DNA of 64,000 bases from NCBI GenBank assembly GCA_036172245.1, contig JAYWIR010000033.1, positions 2,046,001-2,110,000 on the forward strand, in the 5' to 3' direction. The stretch is from Raillietiella orientalis. Lineage: Eukaryota. Shown here piece after piece: positions 3,001-35,350 of the stretch. Position numbers and translations under genes: made by a program. Under the pieces are notes generated by a model. It ran no database searches, was not told the origin of the DNA, and was given only the letters and a program-made list of their open reading frames with translations. Positions within the stretch are counted from its first letter, which is position 1. Each line of letters begins with the position of its first letter.

Positions 3001-4102
3001 TGCATAGTGACCGGAAGCTTCTTCATAAAGCAGTCGCATCCGCCATCTGGGCTCTGCATCTTGCGGCTCTCCGTTTTTGTCTCGGCCTGCCGATTTCTAT
3101 AGTGACAAAGTGGAATAGATTGCTTCACGTGGGAAGCTGGAGTTTATCCCAGCGCGAAATGCCGAAAAGGCAGCTCTGACTAGCTCTTGGAGCCTCTTCA
3201 AATTTCAAACATCTTCACTGGAATCTTTCATGTACTGTGGAGTTCTGTAAAAAGCATTTGAATGAAAGTGGACGCCGCTCCAGTGAAGAACCAGTGAAGA
3301 TCAGTGGGACTCAACGATAGGCGTGAGCGCAAATGAGATGTACATCTTTTCAAGAAATCCTCAGGTTTGACTTGGCTGCATCGCTTCGCACGGCCACCCA
3401 GCTTTAGGACCTTAGGCAGCCCATCAGGGGCACATCAGCGCCTGAGGAGAGTGGTCGTGAATGTCCACCGAGCGTAGGCGAGGTGGCTCAACAGGACTGA
3501 GGGACTCATATTTATCCTGTTCGGATACCACAGGGATAGTGCAGCCGGATCAGTCCCACAGGTAACAAGGCGCAAGAAACAAGACCTAGTAAGCGAAGGA
3601 AAATTCAAGATCTCCAAGAGCAGAGAACTCTGAGCCCAAGGCAATCATCCCACCCTCTCATGAACTTGCGATAGTCCGCAGAAGGAGATGGCTCCAGAGG
3701 AGGAAGGCATTAACCATCGAAAACTTTGACAGCCTCGCAGCAAGTGGTGATCCACACGAAATGCGAGTTATAAGCGCCTGCTGCAAAGGTGGACGATATT
3801 CAAGTATCTCCAATTCTGGCAGAGTTCAGGACTCGCACTGGAAGAAAGTCAACTCCCGAGCTATGGATGGCCATCTCCTCAGAATCTTCGGAAATGGCGT
3901 AGGCAAGGTTTGCGAAACCAGCCTTGAGCTCACACACGCCATCGCCCTTCTCAGTTTTCCTTCCAGTTTTTTGGGGGGTTCCTTGAGTGCCTCAAGAACC
4001 GTCGCGCCTCTGGAGGCAGCTCACTCAGCTCTTTAGCGCTGTTCCATGCCACCAGGGGGTGCGTGTAATTCTTCAAGATAGGTGGTACTCTGGGAGCGGA
4101 CC

Positions 4103-4745
4103 GCCCTATGAATCCAGGAAGGACCTGAAGTCCGTTCCTCTAGAGCCTTGGAAGGGATCTCCGAAGGGAGCCCTCACCCAGAGGAAGCACCTCACCCTCA
4201 CCCTGGTTGTCTCCGAAGGAAACCCCGAAGGGAATCTTAATCCTTATTCTCTCCAGGAGAGACCCCCGAAGGGGTCCGCTCCATTTTTTCCTCTCCGAAG
4301 GGAACCCGGTAAAGGATCCGCTCCTGTTTCCTTCTCTGAAGAGAACACCAAAGGGACACTTCCGAAATTCAAAAGGGCGCTGCTTCCCCGAAGGGAGCGA
4401 CGCGCTTCTCTGCACTCTCTCGAGAGGTGTGACACACCTACTCCATGGTGTGGCACGGAGAGCTTTCCCGAAAGGGGAAGTCTTCTCCTTTGCACAACCA
4501 GAGGGGAAGGAGCTCCCACTCCTTGATTCCTGGAAGGATCCGTAGGGTCGATTCCCACTGCCGGCCACTCATCAAGGACATCCCCTTTGAGTCACTACCT
4601 ATGTTGCACCCGAAAGAATAGAGTCCAACCAGCGTCATCTTGCAGGAGGCACTCGAACCCACGACGCACCCATCTCTCGGTGTCGATTCCTTCCGAGTAT
4701 TCGAATCCGCAACGCTTGGTGCTACGCATGGAGGTCGTGACCACA
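4103..4745 (+). mobile_element. Non-coding structured insertion element, copy 1 (643 bp)
   Basis: Colinear homology with 27580-28266 from TGAATCCAGGAAGG to ACCACA; flanks GGACC (4098-4102) and TGACC (4746-4750); dense CCGAAGG hairpins; splits a LINE RT. Confidence 0.8.
4109..4371 (+). ncRNA. Candidate type III hammerhead-like ribozyme with large stem-I insertion (copy 1)
   Basis: TGAATC (4109-4114) ... CTGAAGA-G (4336-4343) ... C-GAAA-TTCA (4363-4371); TGAAT/ATTCA helix extended by CGCCCT/AGGGCG. Non-canonical extra C after the AUC site; weak stem II. Confidence 0.3.
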
Positions 4746-5490
4746 TGACCACCAATGCGGGAGACAGTTGGCGATCTCTGACGATAGTTGAAACCGTCCT
4801 CTGGTGGTTTCAACTGTCGCCAGAAATCTGGAAATCCTTCTTGGTGCTCTAACACGGAAGGATCTTGCACGGCACAAGGATTCGACATCAGATCAGAATG
4901 CCAAGTGATGGGGACTGCCCTGCATTCGGGAGCATGGAAGATGGATTGCATCCCTGAGCCCTCAAAACCCTCTTCCAAGACAGAAGAGTGGTCGTGCGGC
5001 CAAGAGAATTAAAAGCACAGCTCGGAATAGGAATCCTTTGAGGACTCTTCCGAAAACAGGAAGTCATACTCCTGTATGAACTCACGTCGAGGGTCTGACC
5101 ACGGCCTCCTTTGTAAAAGGTATCCTCATCTGGAAGCAGAAGATTTGAAAGGGTGTGGAGGTTTCCGCTAAGGTCACACTAATGGCCTTCTCAAGAGATG
5201 GGCATGCGGAGGCAGCGGCAGGGTGCCAGATTGGGCCATAAGTTGCACCCTGCAAAAGATCCAGCAGGTCGAACGACAAGCCGTATCCACACCAAGCAAC
5301 CTGATAATCTGTGGACGTTAAAATACCCCTCCGCTAGTCGGACTGGGGAACGGTCAGTTCGATTCCCAAAACAACATGCCCTGTTCCTGCCGATTCTCAG
5401 ACAAGAGCTGAACTCAGTTGCGTCGATTGCATGCCAATGCTGGATGCGAACGAGATGGTGAAGATCCGGACGCGAAGTTTGCTACTTTCG

Positions 5491-7269: not shown

Positions 7270-7373
7270 AACATGAGAGTGCCAAGCCAACTGATGGGAT
7301 TGATGGAGACGAATCTGTGCGAGAAGGACTCCGCCTGTGCGCAAAGACATCGTTCGCGAGACGAGCGGCACGC

Positions 7374-7539
7374 GCGCGTCCAGCACAGCCCTAACCACCC
7401 GCTTCCAGGAGCGACAACCTGCGTGCCCCGAGGCGAGGTGAAGAGGGAAGTGCGCGTCCAGCACAGCCCTAACCACCCGCTTCCAGGAGCGACAACCTGC
7501 GTGCCCCGAGGCGAGGTGAAGAGGGAAGTGCGCGTCCAG
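7374..7539 (+). repeat. Perfect tandem repeat, 78-bp unit, ~2.1 copies
   Basis: GCGCGTCCAG starts at 7374, 7452 and 7530; the two full units are identical. Confidence 0.97.
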
Positions 7540-15120: not shown

Positions 15121-15280
15121 TTCGTGCCGTTACTTCATTCTCATTAACCACCAACAATGCGATTTTCCACTTTCAAGCCATTGTCGGCTATTTTTGGAAT
15201 TTCGTGCACACACCTCATTCTCATTAACCACCAACAATGCGATTTTCCACTTTCAAGCCATTGTCAGCTATTTTTAGATT
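15121..15280 (+). repeat. Tandem duplication, 80-bp unit x2
   Basis: TTCGTGC...TCATTCTCATTAACCACCAACAATGCGATTTTCCACTTTCAAGCCATTGTC(G/A)GCTATTTTT starts at 15121 and 15201. Confidence 0.95.
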
Positions 15281-20335: not shown

Positions 20336-20444
20336 TCTCGGGGTCTTTCCTCCTCCTGAGAGCACTTTGAGATTGCCAGTGCTGCAGAACTCTGTGTTGC
20401 GATTTTGAGAAATCCAGTTTCCTAGTGAGATTTCAGGAAGAAGC

Positions 20445-20992
20445 AGATCCAGAAGCAACTCCTGTTGGCGACGACGAAGCTAGAGAGAAACGTGGTGGAA
20501 GTTCGCAGCGCCCCTGACGTGCAAATCGGTCGCAAGGGCTGCCTGGAAGGGCGAAAGGCGAATAGAACCACTAATTAGTGGTTCTATTAGCTGGTGCCCT
20601 TCGAAGAATCCTGAGGATTACGTGGCTCTTGTCCAAGAGAAAGGGGAACCGAGTCTATACGGTGGAATGAATGATCAGAGACCTTGAGGCCAAAAATGAC
20701 CTCAACCTATTTTCAACCTTCAGATGGTTACGTTTTGCTTACTTGAAAACAGAGACTTGGGCTCTCAGATCCATTGGCGCGTTTCCAGTGGGTCCATTCT
20801 GGAAAGAACAGGTACGGTGAGAAGAGGCAAACACTGGGTCATGGAGCTTTTGGACGTGGATTGGCTTGGAGCTGCCGTCGGCGCAGATCTTGGCGGTAGT
20901 AGCAGTAAATACTTCAGAGATGTTCCTGAAGGTTTTACAAGGAGAGAGGTTCCGTGCAGAGGGACCCCTTGACTGTGGTTCAGTCGATCAGA
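20445..20992 (+). pseudogene. Degenerate, internally deleted nuclear LSU (25S/28S) rRNA fragment
   Basis: Eukaryotic LSU core blocks in order: GGTGGAAGTTCGCAGCG, CTGACGTGCAAATCG, GGGCGAAAG, TAGCTGGT, GAATGATCAGAG, ACCTCAACCTATT, CAGTGGGTCCATT, GCAGATCTTGGCGGTAGTAGCA, CAGTCGATC; the conserved block normally preceding GCAGATCTTGG is missing. Confidence 0.92.
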
Positions 20993-21137
20993 TCGTTCGT
21001 TCAAGTTAACAGAGAAACCCATCCAAAGGAATCAAAAGGATTCAAAATGCCACCGTGCCAAGTCTGAAAGGAAAAAAAAAGTCTTACTGACTAGCATGCT
21101 ATTTGAACCTTATGCTCGATGGAATGTTTAGGAAGAA

Positions 21138-21255
21138 GGTATTCTACAGATACATATTGAACCAAAATCTTCATCAATTTGTCAAAGCGTTGTTTATCTA
21201 CCTTATGATGTTGCATGGAGAGCCAGCACTTGCATGCAATGAAAAATGCAAATCC
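21138..21255 (+). repeat. Direct repeat right of the rRNA fragment
   Basis: See 20207-20335. Confidence 0.9.
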
Positions 21256-22749: not shown

Positions 22750-23265
22750 TGGGGATGGGGAACAGCTCCAGAAAAATGGGGGTGTGTGCTGCTGCTGTTG
22801 TGGGAAGGCCACTCCCTGCATGGACAGCATCGAGTGTTGACAGGAGACATAGACACAAGACTGCATATCTTGACGTGTCCCGCATTGCTTCGAGACTGGC
22901 TGATCCTGAAAAGGACCACTGGAAGAAACACCAGTTGTGTAATGGAAATTCTTGCCGGGGATGTCTCATCACCGCCATACTTGTGCGGTGGTGGAAGATG
23001 AGGAAAGCCAGGAGAGCCGCAACCCCGATGGAGATCCTGCAAGGACTCATCCAGAAGGAGATCGGTATCAGAAATTGTGGCAGAGTCCAGGTCTGGACGT
23101 ACCGATACATCCTGAAGAGGATTGAGGGCGACGCCCGGGAAACAACAATGAGGACCCCACCCTAAAGAAACTTTTCGTTTAAAATCCCAAACAGTGTAAG
23201 TGAAAGAGTATTCAAATTAGAAAGGAATAAATTTACCCCACCCCTTGTGGGACTTGGGGAAAATC
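22750..23265 (+). mobile_element. 3' end of LINE family B, copy 1
   Basis: TRLHILTCP zinc-knuckle tail, AILVRWWKMRK...PMEILQGLIQKEIGIRNCGRVQVWTYRYILKRIE, conserved terminal motif 23226-23262; homologous to 28840-29870. Confidence 0.75.
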
Positions 23266-25780: not shown

Positions 25781-27579
25781 AGATAAAGTCTATCGCTTTC
25801 ATGACTAAGGAATGTTTGTCAGAAATCCACTTGGAATTTCTACATCTAGAGAAGCTCCTTCGATCTGAACTTCAGGAAAAGGTGATGGAAGCAAGTAGGG
25901 CTCTTAGGAAAGATCTTTGGATGCTTTCCCTGCAGCAAAAGGATGAGCAGCATCCCGAGTTCAGCTCACACAATCCGATTTCTACGTTTCGTATTTGCTA
26001 CCACATCGGCTGTGAAGGTTTTCGAAAGTGAATTCTGTGTCTGCTGCGAAGATTCGTCCAAAATTCGAGTGTACAACGCGATTCGTACAACATCCACAGT
26101 GTATCATTCGTATTACGCAATCTCCGATTTGCCGTCGGTCTCTTGCTTACCCCTATTCCTTTTTTGCTTCTTCTCTGCTTTAGCGAATCACATCCTCACA
26201 GCTACAAGACCTGATGGAACTAATAGTTACACTGCCGGTAGAAGGATGAAGTCCCAGAAAACACCGTACTTGAGTTCTCTTCCGAGGTTTCCGAGGTTCA
26301 CGAAATCTGTAAGTTTTTCTTTCGAAATTGTAAGTTTTTCTGTAAGTTTTTTTTTCGGGTAGAAATTTTCTGCTCCTTGAAGATTTTTCCAAACCGCTTT
26401 AGCGTTCTTCACCCCTCCGCCACAGATTTTTCAACACCATGAAATGAGTTTTCTGAATGGACATCTCTTCACGGCACTCCGCAGCCCGAGGTATCCATGG
26501 CTACCTGAGATGGGCAAGGATCCTTCGCGTTGCCAACTTAGAGGTTTTCCAGCTGGACATACCACTTTGGGAGACCCTTCTAGCGGCCAAAAAAAAAAAA
26601 CATTTCGGCCGTTTTTCAATCAGTGGCCTTCGAAGTTTACAGGGTTTGCATGGTTGCAGAGAAAATTTTCAATTACGGGTGCTGCAAATAGTCTGATATA
26701 AAATGTTCCGGATGTTTTCATCAACCCCTGCTTCAATCTCGCAGGATGTGGAGTCTCATGAACAAATTATTGCACTGTTGATAAAAGACTATCCAGAAAA
26801 ACGACTTCCATTTTTGTCTCTAAAAATGATGTGGATGTGGATCGTTGCCTGCGACACATTCCGTTTCGTTATCAGTCGTTTGGCGGCGACCACCACTTCG
26901 CGGCTGAATCTACTTTCTGTTGCTCCCGCTGTTGCCTCCTTGACGACATCTCCTCAAGGCCCCTCTTCTTGGGAAGTCAGGTTTCCGTCTGCGCTTCCCT
27001 CGTTTTCTGTGCATCTACACCCCCGGCAGGCGTGACTTCGAGCCACCCTTCCCTCCTTTTCCTGTAGACTGGGAGCACGGCAGGCTGGATCGCTGGCTGG
27101 ACAGCCGTTTCGTCGGGCAGGGAAATCTCCTGGAGAACGAGCTTCCTCTGCTTCTGTCTGTCCGGGGAGCAATCTGCGTCTTCCTGCACCTGGTGTTGGT
27201 CTCATCTCTGCATTTCGCTGCGGACGTCTTCTCCCGTGGTTGTTCGTTTCCAGCTTTCTTCGGCGTCCTGTGAACGCTGCCGATTTTGGAATTCAGACCA
27301 TTCCTGAAACGTCCTGCATTCCTTCCTTTCGTGGCCGATGCTTTTGCAAAACAGGTACCACTTGGGGCGTGCACGCAATCGGCTGACGCATGTCTCCTTA
27401 CCACGCCTCTCGTGCCGGGGCGCGTCGCTGTTCTGTGGCCGAACGCCATGCATGTCCGGCAAAAGTCTGGCTGTTCGCCATTGGCTACCTGCACCATTTG
27501 GGAGTGTTCGTCGAGCCGGGCGAGGTTGCGGATCTTCGCATCTTTGAGCATGAGGATCTTCATCACCACGGGTAAAGCT

Positions 27580-28266
27580 TCTCTCTGAATCCAGGAAGGG
27601 CTCGGAGTCCGTTCCTCTCACGCTTGGGGAGGGATCCCCCCGGACGGGGGGGATCTCACCTCCCACCCTGGTTGTCTCCGAAGGGGAACCCCGAAGGGAA
27701 TCTCTTTCCTCATTCTCTTCGGAGGGACACCCCCTGGGAGGGGGGTGGTCCTCTCCATTTCATTTTCTCCGAAGGGAACCCGGAAAGGATCCGCTAGTAG
27801 GAATTTCTTCTCCGGAGGGAACCCGCAAAGGAGCCGCTCCTGTTCACTCCTCTGAAGAGAACCCCGAATGGATGCTTTCGAAATTCAGAAGGGGCTATGC
27901 AGCTTCCCGCAGGGGAATCGCTCTCGCTTACTTCCTTGCACTCTGTGAAGAGGCGACGACTCGGAGGGACCCATTTTGAACTGGAGAGTCGCTTGTGAGG
28001 GCTCCTGCTCCATCTTGAAACCGGAGGAGTCCCCCGGTGAGGGGGAACTCCCCACTCCTTGATTCCTGGGAGGACCCGAAGGTCAATTCCCATTGTTCCG
28101 GCCTTCATGGGGGGCCTCCGGCTTAAACGACCACCACGCCCGAATGTCTCGTCCAACCAGAGCCATTGCAGGAGAAACTCGAAACCCAAGGATGCAATGG
28201 CGTCAGTTTCTGCCGGAGTATTCGAACCCGCGACGCATGGTGCCACGCGCGGAAGCCTTAACCACA
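27580..28266 (+). mobile_element. Non-coding structured insertion element, copy 2 (687 bp)
   Basis: Homologous to 4103-4745; flanks AAGCT (27575-27579) and AAGCC (28267-28271); excision restores the host ORF1 frame. Confidence 0.85.
27586..27887 (+). ncRNA. Candidate type III hammerhead-like ribozyme with large stem-I insertion (copy 2)
   Basis: TGAATC (27586-27591); AGGA (27593-27596)/TCCT (27848-27851) stem I; CTGAAGA (27852-27858); GAA/TTC stem II; GAAA (27880-27883); TCTGAAT/ATTCAGA stem III. One extra C at the cleavage junction. Confidence 0.4.
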
Positions 28267-28839
28267 AAGCCTCCGAGAGGTCAGACCTTCTCTCAAACGT
28301 CGACGGCTCCACCCTATTGTTCAAAGTGCGTCCATATGCGGCCTCTTGCGGTCCCAGCCTCCAGATCCGACAGTTGGAATGTCGCTGTCTCCTGTTCGCA
28401 GATCCCGTGTCCATTGTCCATTCTCTACGAGATCGTCGATTACTTCGGGGCTGAGCCTGTACACGGAAAAGCCCCCCAAGAACGGCACGATTGCTTTGAT
28501 CTTCATGAAGTCGATCTTTTGGTGGTGCATCGCGAGACGGATATCACGCACCGCACTGTTGGTCACTGGTCCCATCGGGAAGGTGCTGATGTTCATCTCC
28601 GCACCAAAATCTCTCAAGGGGCGTCGAATCCTTCTTAATTTCTCTGCGGGAGATAAGCACCTCGTTCCGTTGTTGCCACGGAAGTGACCACAGTTGCACA
28701 TGACAGCGCTGTGGTGGCTGTGGTCGTCGCTGTGGCCGACGGTTCTGTTTTTCCACTTCCATCTTCTCCATGTTCCCTTCCGGTGGATTGGGTCCGGACT
28801 ATCGGCTTCTTATTACTTCACAATGGACTTAGTCACTTG

Positions 28840-29870
28840 TTTCCCGAAGTCCCTCAAGGGGTGGGGTAAATTTATTTTCTTTGATCATTCACTCTAGGTA
28901 TTCATGCATTCTTTTTCTCCAATTATTTCACTTATGTCTTCTGGGATTATCATTGAGGTTCACTATACTTGGGGAACTGGGCGTAGTTTATGCCTAGACG
29001 TTGTCCTCAATCCTTCTCAGGATATGTCGGTAGTTCCAGGCCTGTACTATTCCACAGTTTCTTATGCCGATCTCCTTGTGGATAAGCCCTTTCAGGATTT
29101 CCATCGGAGATACGGCGGTGCTGGTGGTCTTCATCTTCCACCACCGCACATTGATGGCGGTGCTGAAGAGGGCGATGGTCATCCTTAAAATGGGATTGTA
29201 ACAGGGAACGTTCCCATTTCCTTGGAACATGCCTGCTAAAATTCTCATGGTCGATGTGGTGCACAGCCCGATTCAGTGTGGGTGAGGGTGTGAGGGTAAA
29301 GGTGTGCCACTCTTGTTGCATAGTGGGGCAGGTGAAGACGTGGAGTCTTGTATGCTTGTCTCCAAATGCTTTGCAGTCCTCCTCTTCTTCCTGTGAAACG
29401 CTTCATGGCTGTCCCGCACAGGATTCCTCCATGATAAAACATCTTGTGAATCCAGTGACAAATCTCTCTTCCGGAGCGTCGTTTCGATCGCCAACAGGTT
29501 TATCCCAGCACTCCCGTGGCGATCGGAGGCTTCTTGGAGGACACTGGTGTATTTTTCCTCTTCGATTATTAGTCGGCGTAGGTTTCTCTTTGTCACCCTG
29601 GACCACACGCAGTTGTGGTTTTTCCACACTTTGCGGATCCTGTGGGTGAATCTTCCAGTTATCTTGTCAATGTATGGGAGTACTCGGGAGTGTTCAAGGT
29701 ACTCTCCTTGTCTCCATGCTTCAGCTGCTTGCAAGGTAACCCTGGACCGCTGGTGGATCCAGTCCTCCATATCCGGAGGTACCGGGAGCATCCACGGGAT
29801 GCTCCCAGTACCGGCTTCCTTAGTCACTTCCAGTCTGTCACTTCCACTTATAGAGACATTCACAATTTAC
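28840..29870 (-). mobile_element. 3' end of LINE family B, copy 2
   Basis: DCKAFGDKHTRLHVFTCP; AINVRWWKMK...PMEILKGLIHKEIGIRNCGIVQAWNYRHILRRIE; terminal motif 28876-28840. Confidence 0.75.
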
Positions 29871-31719
29871 TGACTCTTCTAATGCTTTCTTTTCACTGTA
29901 GGTAATATGACCAGCAGCGCGGCGCTCTTCTTGCAAAAGTGCCGAGCACGTGCAGCAGTAGCTTAACATTTCAAGTGATTAATTCTTAGCTTGCATTTTA
30001 TTTTTGTACTATTGAATCTGACATTAGATGATTCAATAATAATAATGATAAGTTCCTAGGTATTAAAGTCTGGGGATTTTCTTGTTCGAAGGCCATCTAG
30101 AGGGACTCCATCAATTTCTGTTGGCAGCCCTGCCAGCGGCTTGTTCAAAAGACAGGCCGCCCAAGGAGGAGAGCCGTTTCACCTCATCGATGCCGTCAAG
30201 AAGAACGACGAAAGCCAAACCGAAAGTAGGTTCGGGGGTCATCCCCTGATGTGAGCGGCTCTGGCTTCTGAACCAGGTCAAAGTGGAGTCTGGAGTCTCA
30301 GTGCGTGACATTTATGACAACAAGCGATAGCTCTTAAAGTGGCGCATTCACTGCAGGCAGTGACGTCAAATCGAAAAATTAGGCGTTAATGTAAACAAAG
30401 AAGTGTACAAAGAAGCCGAACGGTTACAACAACCAAATACAAATGCAGATGTATTCACAGATGCTTCGAATTTATGTTTACTTGGCCACGATTCATCTGC
30501 AAGAACGTTCGTGATAACGAGCTGCTTTGAAGTTTCTCGTCACTCACGGTTTGTGGAGCAATCGTCCGATCTGCTGGCACATTGGCTCAGGAAAATTCAC
30601 ACGTTGACCCACCCATCCACCAAAAATCTCATTCCAGTAATGCGTTGTGACTTCCGTACCACATTCTCGGCTGGCTGCAGAACGGATTTTCAGCAGGGAG
30701 GTTGCCCCATGCGAAAACGAATACGTTTCCTGCCACCTTGGAGAATGCACCAAAAGCTCTGAAAACAACCGATGACGACACCAAACGTGGAAACTCGAAT
30801 TGTCATCGGTTAATGAGAATGACGCAACGGGTCGATGCCGACAATTTGTCGCATTTCGTATCATCCTTGAGAGGAAGGTCCACCCGAGATCTGTTGCGAC
30901 AAAGAGTCTGCCCAGCACGAATTTATGAGGAAGATGCATTCTCTTTTCTTTTCTTCTCCCCCCCTCCCTCCCCACATCTTGAGGGCGTCTGACACTTGTT
31001 TGAGCTGAAAGGTCCTTTCCTCCGTTTCCAACTTCATTGAGACTCCAATAGAAACTGCCATGAATGCAACACGTGGCTTAAAAAAAGGGGGAGCGTATTT
31101 CAGGCTTTCTCTTCAAAACATGCGCTAGCCTGTGCTCCAATCTTCCAAGGAGGGAAATGCTTCCTGCCGAGATGCATCCCATTCAAGTACCCTCACTCCG
31201 AATGCCGCGATGGCTTCTTTGTTTTCCCGAGATTCCTGGCAGCAGCTGCATCGGGAAACAAAAGTTGCGATGGGAAGCAGCCGCGGAGCAGCGCGGTCTT
31301 AGAGGCACGTTTTCGGAAGACTTGACAGTGGTGTGAATGGCGTCTCCCAGCCAGCGGCCAAATGATCTGCAGCTCTGCAGCATCCGAACGAACGGACCAC
31401 CATTTTGCAAGGATTCTTTCGGAGAACGACAGGACAATTGTGTGTTTTCATGCCCGAGAGAATCGATCCAGGCGCTCGCTAATCAAATCGTTCTTCGTGC
31501 TGGCTCTTATTCTGCACTCCTGCCAGGGTTTTCCACAAAGAGGAAAATTCCTGTTTGTTTGTGTTCCTCAACTTTATTTTCTTCTTGCGAGCTATTTCTT
31601 TTCTGTAAATGCTTCTACCTGAGATGGAAGCATCGCCTTTTACGCGATGGCACGCGAATTCCAAGTTTTCCCCGAGGGGTCGCCCCTAAAGGAAGCAGAG
31701 CATCTCTTCACACTCTGCA

Positions 31720-32620
31720 GTAGAGGATCATCAATCCACCAGCTACGTGGCGCCCAAAGATACCTCACCTGCTCGACAAGACCGAGACCACTTCGCCGCA
31801 AGGGGCTGCTCTTGACCTCTCCGAGGCCAACAGTGCAGAGTCTATCCTAGAGGACATTGCGGGTGTGTGCGAGCGATGCCTACCAGATACCGCGCCGATC
31901 TCATGTGTAAGGGGTCTCTGGTAGGGTAGACGTCCCTGAAGCATGTCCTCAATCACTGCATCGGGGACGCACATTCCAGAACGCCGAAAGGTACAACGAA
32001 CTGGTGGTCTGGAACAAGAGGGCTCTTCAATAAAAGTGAGAGCTGGTGGACTCCCACGAACCCATTCCCGGCAGGTTCGACACTGAGATCGGATGTGCTG
32101 CTCCGAAATGACGGGGGCCTGTCAATGGTAAACCCTTCCCGCGAATGACAATCTTCTGCTGAAGCACCTGGAGGAGACGAAAGGAGAGAAGAACTAGTCT
32201 TTCGCCTTCGCCACAATGTACCAGAATCCATCAGAGAGATGGTCGTAACATCCTTTGGTTCACCACCCTCCGAGGAGAATATCAACCATCCCTTTGGTAG
32301 GCAATGGAGGGTTTTTTTCGCAGTCGGAGAGACGAAGACCCATTTCTTTGGCGTCGATCCTTTTCGAAGGGATTCGAACTCTCAATGCTTGCAACCACGT
32401 GAGGAGACCTCAGCCACACGTGGGCATTTTACGTGCCTGGGGCAGTCGCTGCTTGTAACCGATTTGCCGCGGGAGCTCGATCTCTTGGAAACCATTCTTC
32501 TCTCGGGTTCGGAGGAGATCCAATAATTCGAAATCCGCGCAAATTTTCGTTAATGACTTCCCAAGAATAGAATGAGCTCCATCGATCGATGGAAGCAAAA
32601 GTGCTTCGATCTGTATCCAT
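31720..32620 (-). mobile_element. Possible LINE APE/linker remnant
   Basis: GFTIDR...STSDL resembles the APE RID...SDH segment; heavily decayed. Confidence 0.3.
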
Positions 32621-32866: not shown

Positions 32867-33700
32867 CGTTTATTTTGAAAAAAGGAAACTACAATTAGAG
32901 GGGAGAAGTACCCCTCAAAAAAGAGAAGTGTCAATAAATTCATTGGGGATGATCAACCGTACGCAGGCCGGCTACCAAAAAATAAAAAAAACGGAGGGAG
33001 TGGCCAACCAATACATAAAAAAAACCGCGAGGATAAAGACCGGAGGGTTCCATTCGTCCCTTACATTCTAGAAGAAGCTCTGAATGACGGCGATCTCCCT
33101 GGAGACTTCCGGGAGAGGAAGCAACCTTGCTGCTGCCCCCATGAGAGCTGCTGCCATGCTGGTGGCCTCCCTTCACTGAGAACCTGACTGCAGCACATAG
33201 CGGGCTGTCACTAAGGCGCGGATGCAGAATCTCGTTGGGATCGCAGCACCCCTCCCGGTATGGTGAAACGGACGAAGGACCCCCTTCGAAAAGCCCTCTG
33301 GGGCAATGGGGGTCCCGCGTGCTATTAAAAGACTTCTGTGCTCCTCGTCGCCACGGAGGACTTGAACTTCTGACGTTGGAGCGCATGGAAGTTCAACTGA
33401 GCTTCTGAAAACTGACCTTCGTCACAGAACTGGGTCATCCATTGGTACGCCCCTGAACGTTCGCTTTCCCGGCTGGCTGTCGGTGGCGAAGGACTCGCAT
33501 CCCTGTTTGCGTGTCAACACCGCCGCCTCCCATCTTACGGCTTCCCCCTCCGGTGCGTCGCTGCTCTGGTGAGAGCGAACACGTGGATTTCCTGCCGCCC
33601 TGCGAACACTCCGGCCTGGTGGCACAAGAAAGTGAGGACGTGGGTCCAGCTGACCCGGATTCCTCCAGAAGTTTTCCGCCGCCGAGGGTTTCAGAAGAAC
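32867..33700 (-). mobile_element. 3' fragment of a family A-like LINE
   Basis: T-rich 3' UTR on minus ending AAAATAAACG (32876-32867); GC-rich ORF2-tail remnants upstream. Confidence 0.45.
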
Positions 33701-33749
33701 AGCGGAAGAACACTGGAGGCGGTGGGTAGTGAGCTGACCGTGTTAGCCT

Positions 33750-34570
33750 ACCCAGCAACCATCCCCTCCGCCGCAGCGATGTCCTCCGCTGTTGAGGTAC
33801 ATGGCACCTGCCTACAGGCGAAATGGGAGAGTTTTTGCGAGATCTCGACCTGCAGGGAGCCTATCGGTGGCTGCACTCCGCAGCAACAGCAAGAACCGTC
33901 TCCCAAGGACTGGAATGTTGGGGTGAACCCTTATCCATTGGGCCCGAAGAGTTGGAAGTATGTTCTTGGACAGCAAGCTGCTTCCCATCAAATGGCAGCA
34001 GCAGGCGTTGCTGATACTGCACTGGGGTTTCCCGTGCAATGCGCGCCGGTGCCACTAGTCCAGGGGGAGCTCATCGCCGAACTGCCCCAGAGAAGGAGAC
34101 CTTCCCCTACCCCTTGCTGTAGTGCGTCTCGCCCTCCGGGACTTGTGGGAACGTTTCTCTGCGTCCGTGGGCGATCCCAGAGACTCTTTGAGGCCCCACC
34201 TCGTGCGGGACGCCATGACGCCCGCAGCCGCAGTGGCAGAGCTGTGCTGCGTGCTCCGTGTCGTCGCGGCGAAGTGCGGCGCCGAGAGGGGCCGGAGAGA
34301 CGGGGGCCCGCCCTGCACGCCATCCGCTTCCTGCAGAAAGCTTTAAGAAGGTCCCACCTGGAATGGAGAGAAGGAGGAGCTCACGGGCATCCTTCAACGG
34401 ATCCAGAGGTCTCACCCACCACGAAATGTAATCCCTTCCCTTTCCACCGACTAATCTTTTCTTGTTTGTTTGTTATCATTTTCTATTTTTGTTTCATCCC
34501 CCTTCCCCTTCGTGGACGTGATGGACCTCTCTGCCCCCCCCTTCTTTCCAGTGTAACAATTGGACTTGGT
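33750..34570 (+). mobile_element. 3' fragment of LINE family A
   Basis: CACTGGGG (the family's LHWG motif) at ~34020, zinc-finger remnants, AELCCVLRVV tail, pyrimidine-rich 3' UTR. Confidence 0.55.
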
Positions 34571-34574
34571 GGGC

Positions 34575-35350
34575 CATCAGCACCCGGGTGTGAAATCACA
34601 GCGCCTTTCTTCAGCCCGCCTCCGCTGAAGAAGCGTCGCAGCAAGTGCAAAGAGGTGTTCCGGGAGTTAGGGGAGGCAGCTCTCCTGGAATCCAGGTGTC
34701 TGAGCTGCTTGCACTGGAATCCCCAGTGCAGAAACAGCAGGACATCCCGTTTCCACCGAAGCGGAAGCACGGAGGTGTCCACACACAGGGAAAGGACCAC
34801 AAGTTCTTCGGGAGGCACATCAAGTAGCTCACTCCACCGAGGGAGTCCCTGCGCCCGGAAAACGAGAAGTGGCAGCGTTCACCAACTCCCTCCTCGGCTT
34901 CCAGCCGTTGAGGAGTTTCTCAACCCCAGCAGTTTTGCAGGAAAACGCCCACTCTGCCAGTTGGCTGCCGTCATCTTTTCCCCTGAGGGCAGTCGGTGCT
35001 GTGGCAAGGGGCCAGACAGCTATCCGGGGCAATGCGTTCCAGTCCTGCAGGAGATCTCCCGGCGGTTTGCGTGGGAGATTCTGCAGCGATCGCAGTTCTT
35101 CTGGAAGCAAAGGTTCCGGTTCCAATGTTCCAGTCCAGTGCTCCAGAGCTTCCTGCAGCCAGGCATTCCAGTTTTGTAGGCAGCAGCAGATCCACGGGTG
35201 GACTACAAGTAGTGAAGGCTGATGCCTCAGGGGGAGACCACAGCCAGTCCTCCGGCATAGGTTGCGCGCGGCACCAGCGAAAGAAGTCCTGAACTTCCAG
35301 CGCCTCGCCGGAGGATGGGGCGTGTCGGAGCACACCACAATTTCCCACAC
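34575..35350 (-). mobile_element. 3' fragment of LINE family A
   Basis: LPLRWKRDVLLFLHWGFQC and LLRRFF, matching the 46260 and 55040 copies. Confidence 0.75.

Follow-up and report, generated by a model that had tools for sequence, protein, structure and literature searches.

The window, by which we mean the whole 64-kb stretch of DNA analyzed, contains two full copies of a noncoding element that belongs to a diverged, multicopy family and is surrounded by low-copy sequence. Our explanation, which is a tentative one, is that the family is an old one of composite, nonautonomous, noncoding retroposons similar to SINEs and SVA elements, read from the minus strand and dependent on a non-LTR partner. 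It is probably inactive now.

Two Full Copies and One Partial Copy

The first-pass annotation of the window had proposed that the two copies are colinear homologs, and blastn bears this out: positions 4106–4354 align with 27583–27831 (73.0% over 263 nt, E = 1.6e-32) and, in a second colinear block, 4509–4745 align with 28044–28266 (69.5% over 243 nt, E = 9e-17), with no blastn alignment between the copies in their middle parts (table 1). Both carry TGAATCCAGGAAGG near their left end and ACCACA at their right end, just as had been read before. Their surroundings are unrelated, and both blastn and a MAFFT alignment place their start and stop points at equivalent positions; in the latter, copies 1 and 2 differ by an indel of 42 nt, which corresponds to one hairpin unit. 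The copies lie 23.5 kb apart with nonmatching outer flanks, and blastn detected no further full copy within the 64-kb window. Under a model with 6-bp duplications, they would span 4105–4746 and 27582–28267, respectively, and copy 1 possibly extends leftward to about 4080.

A profile built from the two full copies identified a third, partial and diverged copy, whose match is confined to positions 1–97 of the head and begins at the common TGTGG end. This end (...CCACA/TGTGG...) is thus shared by all three copies of the window. The remainder of the third copy, past its head, does not significantly resemble the full copies (~200 of 300 shuffles did as well). At 31662–31726, ~600 nt beyond this head, the hairpin-unit region has a weak colinear match, which scores 3.1 versus a best score of −0.8 in 30 random pieces of 1.2 kb.

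Table 1. Positions of the Copies, of the Parts of the Element, and of the Candidate Target-Site Duplications (TSDs) in the Window
Feature	Position	Strand	Basis or remark
Copy 1, homology core	4109..4745	-	blastn, nhmmer, MAFFT alignment
Copy 2, homology core	27586..28266	-	blastn, nhmmer, contigs of the public DNA run
Third copy, partial and diverged	32321..32418	-	nhmmer E 1.2e-5, two-copy profile
Head block, copy 2	28044..28266	-	Starts TGTGGT; copy 1 counterpart 4509-4745
Variable middle, copy 2	27832..28043	-	Copy 1: 4355-4508; unaligned by blastn
Array of four degenerate 41-50-nt units, copy 2	27675..27856	-	Units start TCTCCGRAGG on the plus strand
Terminal stem-loop AGGAAC-GGAC...-UUCCU, copy 2	27593..27616	-	Helix 8, consensus fold
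Candidate TSD, copy 1, GACCGC / GACCAC	4099-4104 / 4747-4752	.	5/6 match
Candidate TSD, copy 2, AGCTTC / AGCCTC	27576-27581 / 28268-28273	.	5/6 match

An Old, Dispersed, and Multicopy Family

One public DNA run contains 14% of the sampled words, and no RNA run was listed as containing any of them. When contigs of this DNA run were aligned to positions 26500–29500 at a minimum identity of 80%, 106 short contigs were placed on that stretch, almost only over the element. Three of them fall in the class of at least 99% identity, 9 in that of 95–99%, 34 in that of 90–95%, and 60 below 90%. The summed depth ranges from 14 to 51 across 27510–28317, is 2–3 on 28318–28519, and drops to 0 on 26500–27509 and 28520–28822. 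Because the unique flank at 28356–28506 is reproduced exactly by one contig, the run comes from the same genome or from a very close one. The divergence of the copies, together with the presence of contigs on the element and the uncovered flanks, indicates that the family is old, dispersed, and multicopy. The description first given, that of an unclassified, noncoding, and mobile repeat family, agrees well with this multicopy state, with the low copy number of the flanks, and with the unrelated contexts of the copies. A separate repeat, at 28823–29226, is likewise multicopy in the same run.

The conserved element words occur at no locus in metagenome contigs and at none in viral contigs, and a 21-nt word match in the genome contigs of a betaproteobacterial MAG was dismissed as a chance match, the blastn homology ending with the word itself. 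We found no published description of the family in a literature search that was aimed at the comparison classes and not at the sequence.

Composite Organization on the Minus Strand

Read on the minus strand, the element is composed of a head of ~230 nt, a variable middle, hairpin units of 41–52 nt, and a conserved terminal stem-loop, and the number of units differs between family members. The head carries a box-B-like GGGTTCGAAT at 28229–28220 (4708–4699 in copy 1) and, in copy 2, a second such motif, GGTTTCGAG, at 28187–28178. In all three copies, GGTTCGAAT starts 36 nt after the GTGG of the defined end, which is close to the spacing between box A and box B in class I tRNA genes. The first-pass annotation had overlooked this motif. 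No tRNA was called by ARAGORN in the element, none of the tRNA, 5S, 7SL, and other small-RNA models of Rfam matched the head at E ≤ 10, and no cloverleaf could be built from the three heads.

Each unit of the array starts with TCTCCGRAGG on the plus strand, which corresponds to UUCG hairpins of the CCTTCGGAGA type on the minus strand. Copy 1 has this motif at 4158, 4210, and 4292. Whole units are skipped in contigs of the DNA run (from 27628 to 27803, from 27727 to 27804, from 27782 to 27828, and others). Tandem Repeats Finder did not detect the units because they are too diverged. The terminal stem-loop, located at 4116–4139 in copy 1, is formed by a helix of nine pairs, eight of them invariant and one U-A/U-G, and is followed by an invariant CCTTCCTGGATTCA (27599–27586 in copy 2 and 4122–4109 in copy 1). 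Within the window, both the stem-loop motif and CCTTCCTGGATTCA are restricted to the two full copies.

The element has no coding capacity. The ORFs scanned inside it match no Pfam family (five ORFs of 60–119 aa inside copy 2 were left out of the scan), and no relatives of the proteins encoded by its two longest frames were found. It also bears no poly(A) or simple-repeat tail, and the two copies have no terminal inverted repeat in common. The first-pass annotation, which had seen no conserved ORF, terminal inverted repeat, poly(A), or tRNA head, was therefore correct on these points (ARAGORN 0 calls, no Rfam tRNA match to the head at E ≤ 10).

RNA Folding and the Sense Strand

The element had also been called hairpin-rich, which stands as regards the CCTTCGG hairpins, 10 of whose 14 occurrences on the minus strand of the window fall in the two full copies, but not as regards folding energy: single-sequence folds of the whole element and of its halves, on either strand, were no better than those of dinucleotide shuffles (z = −0.9, −1.4, −1.3, −0.9, +0.2, and +1.1). 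A two-sequence consensus fold of the unit half, on the other hand, differed between the strands, with z values of −3.4 to −5.0 on the minus strand, where 0 of 100 column shuffles were as good, versus +0.3 to −0.6 on the plus strand. Five pairs change on both sides and yet stay paired, as compared with 2.5 ± 1.1 in shuffles (12 of 500 reached this number) and 0–1 in slid controls, and all eight one-sided changes on the consensus structure (8/8) give G-U, these counts being made on a structure that was itself built from these two sequences and against column shuffles, which do not preserve dinucleotides. About four in ten of the Watson–Crick stem pairs of one copy are nonstandard in the other, when G-U wobbles and gaps are taken as unpaired. 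A strand-neutral count showed no clear preference, 43 wobble changes fitting the minus strand and 34 the plus strand.

As modeled from these two copies, the fold leans toward a minus-strand RNA. Small cues in the same direction come from the position of the box-B-like motif, from the T runs, and from the higher depth of the DNA run on the unit side (48–51 vs. 22–36 on the head side). T runs of at least four are absent from the minus strand of copy 2 and occur once on that of copy 1; the plus strand shows T4–T6 at a conserved site.

The Ends of the Element and the Candidate Duplications

The right end (...ACCACA) is well defined: the three copies agree on it, and the depth of the DNA run falls there. 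The first-pass annotation had claimed defined ends with target-site duplications; a defined end is borne out on this side but not on the left. Homology between copies 1 and 2 starts at TGAATCC, and 3 of the 6 bases preceding it agree. However, nine contigs of the DNA run extend to the left past 27586 with a common continuation of 30 nt (agreement 0.74), which looks like one more hairpin unit. Copy 2 does not have this continuation, which is present in other family members. The flank of copy 1 at 4075–4102 resembles it, to a degree equaled by 153 of 20000 random 28-mers and by 297 of 9565 GC-rich ones, and positions 4093–4102 are exactly complementary to the internal unit at 4273–4282. This resemblance would put the candidate duplication of copy 1 inside the element.

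The 5-bp flanks first reported, GGACC/TGACC and AAGCT/AAGCC, are indeed present, and, one position over, a single common register gives 6-mers with 5/6 matches in both copies (table 1); that of copy 2 extends further to AAAGCTTC/AAAGCCTC (7/8). A joint match of at least 6 nt with at most one mismatch arose by chance in 112 of 20000 anchor sets with a slack of ±6 and in 341 of 20000 with a slack of ±12 (0.6–1.7%), and one of at least 5 nt in 418 of 3000 random sets. Neither duplication is significant on its own, the one of copy 2 being equaled in 2546 of 3000 shuffles. We rejected an alternative duplication of 10/11 nt for copy 1, CATGCCACCA at 4045–4054 and CATGACCACCA at 4744–4754, which was equaled in 112 of 3000 shuffles and in 213 of 3000 placements made at random, and which would also leave too few residues between two motifs similar to those of reverse transcriptases. 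The left continuation and the joint duplication, each at ~1%, thus point in opposite directions, both being post hoc and drawn from two copies. They could possibly be reconciled by a subfamily with a shorter end, by downstream sequence carried along by master copies, or by unit-like insertion targets.

These observations also bear on the main rival scenario, unlikely in our judgment although it deserves serious consideration, in which the copies would each be a fragment of some longer repeat (for example, a LINE untranslated region or a long LTR), with the right end in common, the left end and the short flanking repeats being accidents of truncation or deletion. The nine contigs and the flank of copy 1, with its match to the continuation and its complementarity to an internal unit over 10 nt, fit such a repeat. 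So does the third copy, which retains only 97 nt by the common end, and the pattern on the plus strand is that of 5′-truncated copies with a common 3′ end, 10–35 nt from which lies a hairpin. However, two independent truncations would be needed within about 25 nt of each other, the depth of the DNA run decreases toward the common right end instead of increasing, the plus strand gives no consensus-fold signal, and no coding partner was found in the window by Pfam among the 529 of 564 ORFs of at least 60 aa that were scanned.

Under the SINE/SVA-like interpretation, the lower depth on the head side is what 5′ truncation would give, which we regard as a cue. A transcript of the minus strand would start at TGTGGT with the ~230-nt head and its box-B-like GGTTCGAAT, and would continue with the fast-evolving middle, the C(UUCG)G-type hairpin units of ~41–52 nt, the stem-loop, and CCTTCCTGGATTCA. 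An autonomous non-LTR element would supply a reverse transcriptase that recognizes the structured 3′ part and copies the RNA to new sites, each insertion leaving duplications of about 6–8 bp. In this way the two full copies would have landed in decayed coding regions of retroelements. Several points count against this interpretation: with at least 640 nt the element is long for a SINE, neither its head nor its tail is a recognized one, and the 3′ end on the minus strand, which is expected to be constant, is ragged.

Comparison with Known Element Classes

Stringent tRNA-derived SINEs resemble the element in being noncoding and nonautonomous, with a sharp end bearing a box-B-like GGTTCGAAT, a stem-loop near the other end, short direct repeats, and many diverged copies within other repeats. 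In stringent SINEs, the tail is recognized by a partner LINE and no poly(A) is present. The element differs from them by its length of at least 640 nt, by a putative 3′ end that is not constant, by the internal array of hairpin units, by a head that is not recognized as a tRNA, and by the failure to find a partner LINE tail in the window, where the tail motifs (AGGAACGGAC...CCTTCCTGGATTCA) are confined to the two full copies and no LINE carries them. A strict tRNA-derived SINE seems improbable, the head being unrecognized by both ARAGORN and Rfam and forming no cloverleaf. SVA-like composites (SINE-VNTR-Alu) are similarly modular and noncoding, with a unit number that varies between copies, and 3′ flanking sequence carried along would be a possible source of the extended copies. 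The element differs from these by the lack of poly(A) and of recognizable parent modules, and the likeness is therefore one of architecture only, with no claim of homology. Two classes of DNA transposons were rejected. TIR or MITE transposons, which have terminal inverted repeats and make a duplication of fixed length, do not fit because the two copies share no terminal inverted repeat. Helitrons begin with 5′-TC, end with a hairpin and CTRR-3′, and insert between A and T without duplication; the ends observed here are TGTGG.../...GGATTCA on the minus strand or ...ACCACA on the plus strand, and show neither TC nor CTRR.

It is also conceivable, although improbable, that the element is a structured-RNA retroposon of an undescribed kind, without LTR, terminal inverted repeat, poly(A), or recognizable small-RNA head, and defined by the variable array of UUCG units and the terminal stem-loop on the minus strand. 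These may then serve as the handle of an unseen partner enzyme, with duplications of ~6 bp and with downstream sequence sometimes carried along.

The suggestion that the element is solo-LTR-like was not sustained. An origin as a solo LTR, or as the LTR of a small nonautonomous element (TRIM-like, including Helenus/TRIMp3) inserted by an integrase, would account for short duplications of equal length (5–6 bp) in both copies and for a minus strand beginning with TG(TGG), and the size suits an LTR. Helenus/TRIMp3 are nonautonomous LTR elements whose LTR contains a tRNA-like sequence and which make duplications of 4–5 bp; a tRNA-like box B motif inside an LTR is thus already known (PMC10886601). 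The likeness lies in a promoter motif of small-RNA type within a repeat that makes short duplications. However, Helenus has two LTRs around a primer-binding site (PBS) as well as a polypurine tract (PPT), whereas the element has none of these and no TG...CA against duplications. Indeed, no register in either orientation places TG...CA termini directly against a duplication of 4–6 bp: in the 6-bp register, the minus strand begins with AT/TT and finishes with GG/GA, and directly beside TG...CA ends (TGTGG...GGATTCA) stand the 5-mers GGTCA/TAGGG and GGCTT/GAGAG. We read no PBS-like sequence and no purine-rich tract beside any of the three copies. The first-pass annotation had also recommended looking for paired copies that enclose a region containing PBS and PPT; none occurs within the window, the two full copies being 23.5 kb apart, with different outer flanks and no shared outer duplications. 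We consider an LTR origin to be doubtful on these grounds.

The parallel suggestion of a retrozyme-like element, which would bear a ribozyme and spread via circular RNA, now appears extremely unlikely. The element is noncoding, measures 640–690 nt, and contains many small hairpins, and in this it resembles retrozyme RNAs, which are given as 600–1000 nt (PMC5680766). Retrozymes, as defined in PMC4918200, possess a hammerhead ribozyme in both terminal repeats, direct repeats of 300–400 bp that enclose a noncoding center of 300–600 bp, a PBS, and a PPT. Plant retrozymes share with the element a noncoding nature, a similar size, and a structured RNA, but the element has no hammerhead, LTR pair, PBS, PPT, or 4-bp duplication (PMC4918200). 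A search with all 4227 Rfam families found no ribozyme family (hammerhead, twister, HDV-like, or other self-cleaving family) at E ≤ 10 on both strands of both copies, and self-comparison gave only repeats of 10–16 nt, with no internal direct repeats of 300–400 bp.

Such a finding is ordinary in a eukaryotic genome rich in repeats, and nothing marks the element as exceptional. It matters mainly for annotation, as a repeat family to be masked and named in the genome. If the array of hairpin units were the handle of a partner reverse transcriptase, it would be a useful case of recruitment without a poly(A) tail; at present, it is indistinguishable in kind from many unclassified eukaryotic repeats.

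Host Sequences and Coding Content of the Window

The sequences that flank the copies had been interpreted as reverse transcriptase and ORF1 coding regions, an identification that Pfam did not confirm: 12 flank frames, in which stops were written as X, matched 0 families at E ≤ 0.1. What can be recognized are relics at the level of motifs. On the minus strand, copy 1 is preceded by ...PEDGFNYRQRSPTVSRIGG and followed by ...PLVAWNSAKELSELP, and the motifs in its flanks (GFNYRQRS... and ...NSAKELSELP) are 28–33 residues apart, depending on where the left boundary is set, a spacing that we take to fit motifs 2 and A of reverse transcriptases. Around copy 2, two relics resembling knuckles, FCRTCMAFGH and YLFCKSIGHERKEC, lie in frames that differ from each other. 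Excision of copy 2 had been described as restoring an in-frame ORF1, and that of copy 1 as rejoining consecutive reverse-transcriptase motifs. When copy 2 is taken out together with one repeat, DLSEA does run into LPVVMKIL in phase; removing copy 1 in the same way does not keep the phase. Judging from these motifs, insertion into decayed retroelement genes is plausible.

The phase of the host frames is also relevant to a reading that we hold to be very unlikely, in which the element moves at the DNA level, as introners or other such elements do, with its sense strand aligned to that of the host frames, and is removable as a GT...AG intron. Both copies have the orientation of their decayed host frames, both minus strands start with (T)GTGGT and finish with a pyrimidine-rich ...CCTTCCTGGATTCAKAG, and removal of the 683 nt from GT (28265) to AG (27583), done by hand, brings the frames around copy 2 in phase. 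On the other hand, the equivalent removal in copy 1 (4744...4106, 639 nt) loses the phase and would require a GT five bases upstream, and agreement of phase, as in copy 2, would arise by chance one time in three, even before allowing for the choice among several sites. The consensus of 5′ splice sites is GTRAGT, compared with which the sites here are poor; moreover, the hosts are dead repeats, and no terminal inverted repeats are present.

Among the 529 of 564 ORFs of at least 60 aa that were scanned in the window, Pfam identified no retroelement family and no family above its curated cut-off. For ORFs of at least 120 aa, 84 of 102 were scanned (18 overlapping ones were dropped by hand) and matched 0 families at E ≤ 0.01. 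For those of 60–119 aa, the scan covered 445 of 462, the ones left out being the five inside copy 2 mentioned above and twelve at 62.5–64 kb: 10 of 145 showed matches below the cut-off at E ≤ 0.1, unrelated to retroelements, and 0 of the remaining 300 had a match at E ≤ 0.001. The 64 kb around the element are therefore a desert of decayed repeats without a recognizable protein domain.

A few minor observations complete this picture. A search for a relic of the dinoflagellate spliced leader in the window, with up to three mismatches allowed, gave 0 matches, and the sole Rfam match in the window is a degenerate fragment of LSU rRNA, which marks the DNA as eukaryotic. A protein atlas returned only sub-threshold, unrelated neighbors. 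The 162-aa ORF in the flank of copy 2 (28324–28809, minus strand) has two matches among 1.84 billion representatives, and both are unnamed tandem-repeat proteins.

Architecture of the Repeat and Its Flank

The motif that closes the minus-strand repeat, CCTTCCTGGATTCA, recurs as a variant where the head block, the conserved ~230-nt start of the two homologous copies, comes to its end; in copy 1 this variant reads CCTTCCAGGAATCA, and the invariant AGGAGTGGG follows directly. This recurrence suggests that two units with like ends may have fused to form the element. In the partial third copy, a run of seven As (32312–32318, minus strand) lies two bases past the 97-nt head; it could be a short A-tail left by a retroposed RNA that consisted of the head only, or could be due to chance.

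The 162-aa open frame adjoining copy 2 is similar (E-value 2.6e−16, nine stretches) to an unnamed tandem-repeat protein of 1555 aa found in a public assembly; it matches every unit of that protein and shares with it the motif ...FPMGP.xN.... Judged by this similarity, the flank of copy 2 is itself a repeated unit elsewhere.

Features of the window outside the main body of the repeat, with the recurring motif
Feature	Positions	Strand	Details
Variant of terminal motif CCTTCCTGGATTCA	4524–4537 (copy 1); 28060–28073 (copy 2)	−	At head-block end
Open frame adjoining copy 2	28324–28809	−	162 aa
Degenerate eukaryotic large-subunit rRNA fragment	20432–21201	+	Rfam RF02543, 66 bits, model positions 665–1888
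Second multi-copy repeat	28823–29226; 22966–23146
Short tandem duplication	7364–7519		78 nt × 2, 95% identity
Short tandem duplication	15121–15280		80 nt × 2, 90% identity

Genomic Surroundings

Taken as a whole, the 64-kb window has the look of a desert of decayed repeats. No Pfam family scored above its curated cut-off in the 529 ORFs scanned among the 564 of at least 60 aa, and the longest open frame (33416–35176, 587 aa) is of low complexity and without family. TpA is strongly depleted across the window (observed/expected 0.50), and CpG only mildly so (0.81). Because it is remote from any rDNA context, the large-subunit rRNA fragment is probably decayed rDNA or a retroposed piece. The second multi-copy repeat includes an inverted pair (28986–29166 vs. 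22966–23146, 181 nt, 78%), and in its region the summed depth of X1, a public DNA run whose contigs were aligned on 26500–29500 at ≥80% identity, reaches up to 72.7.
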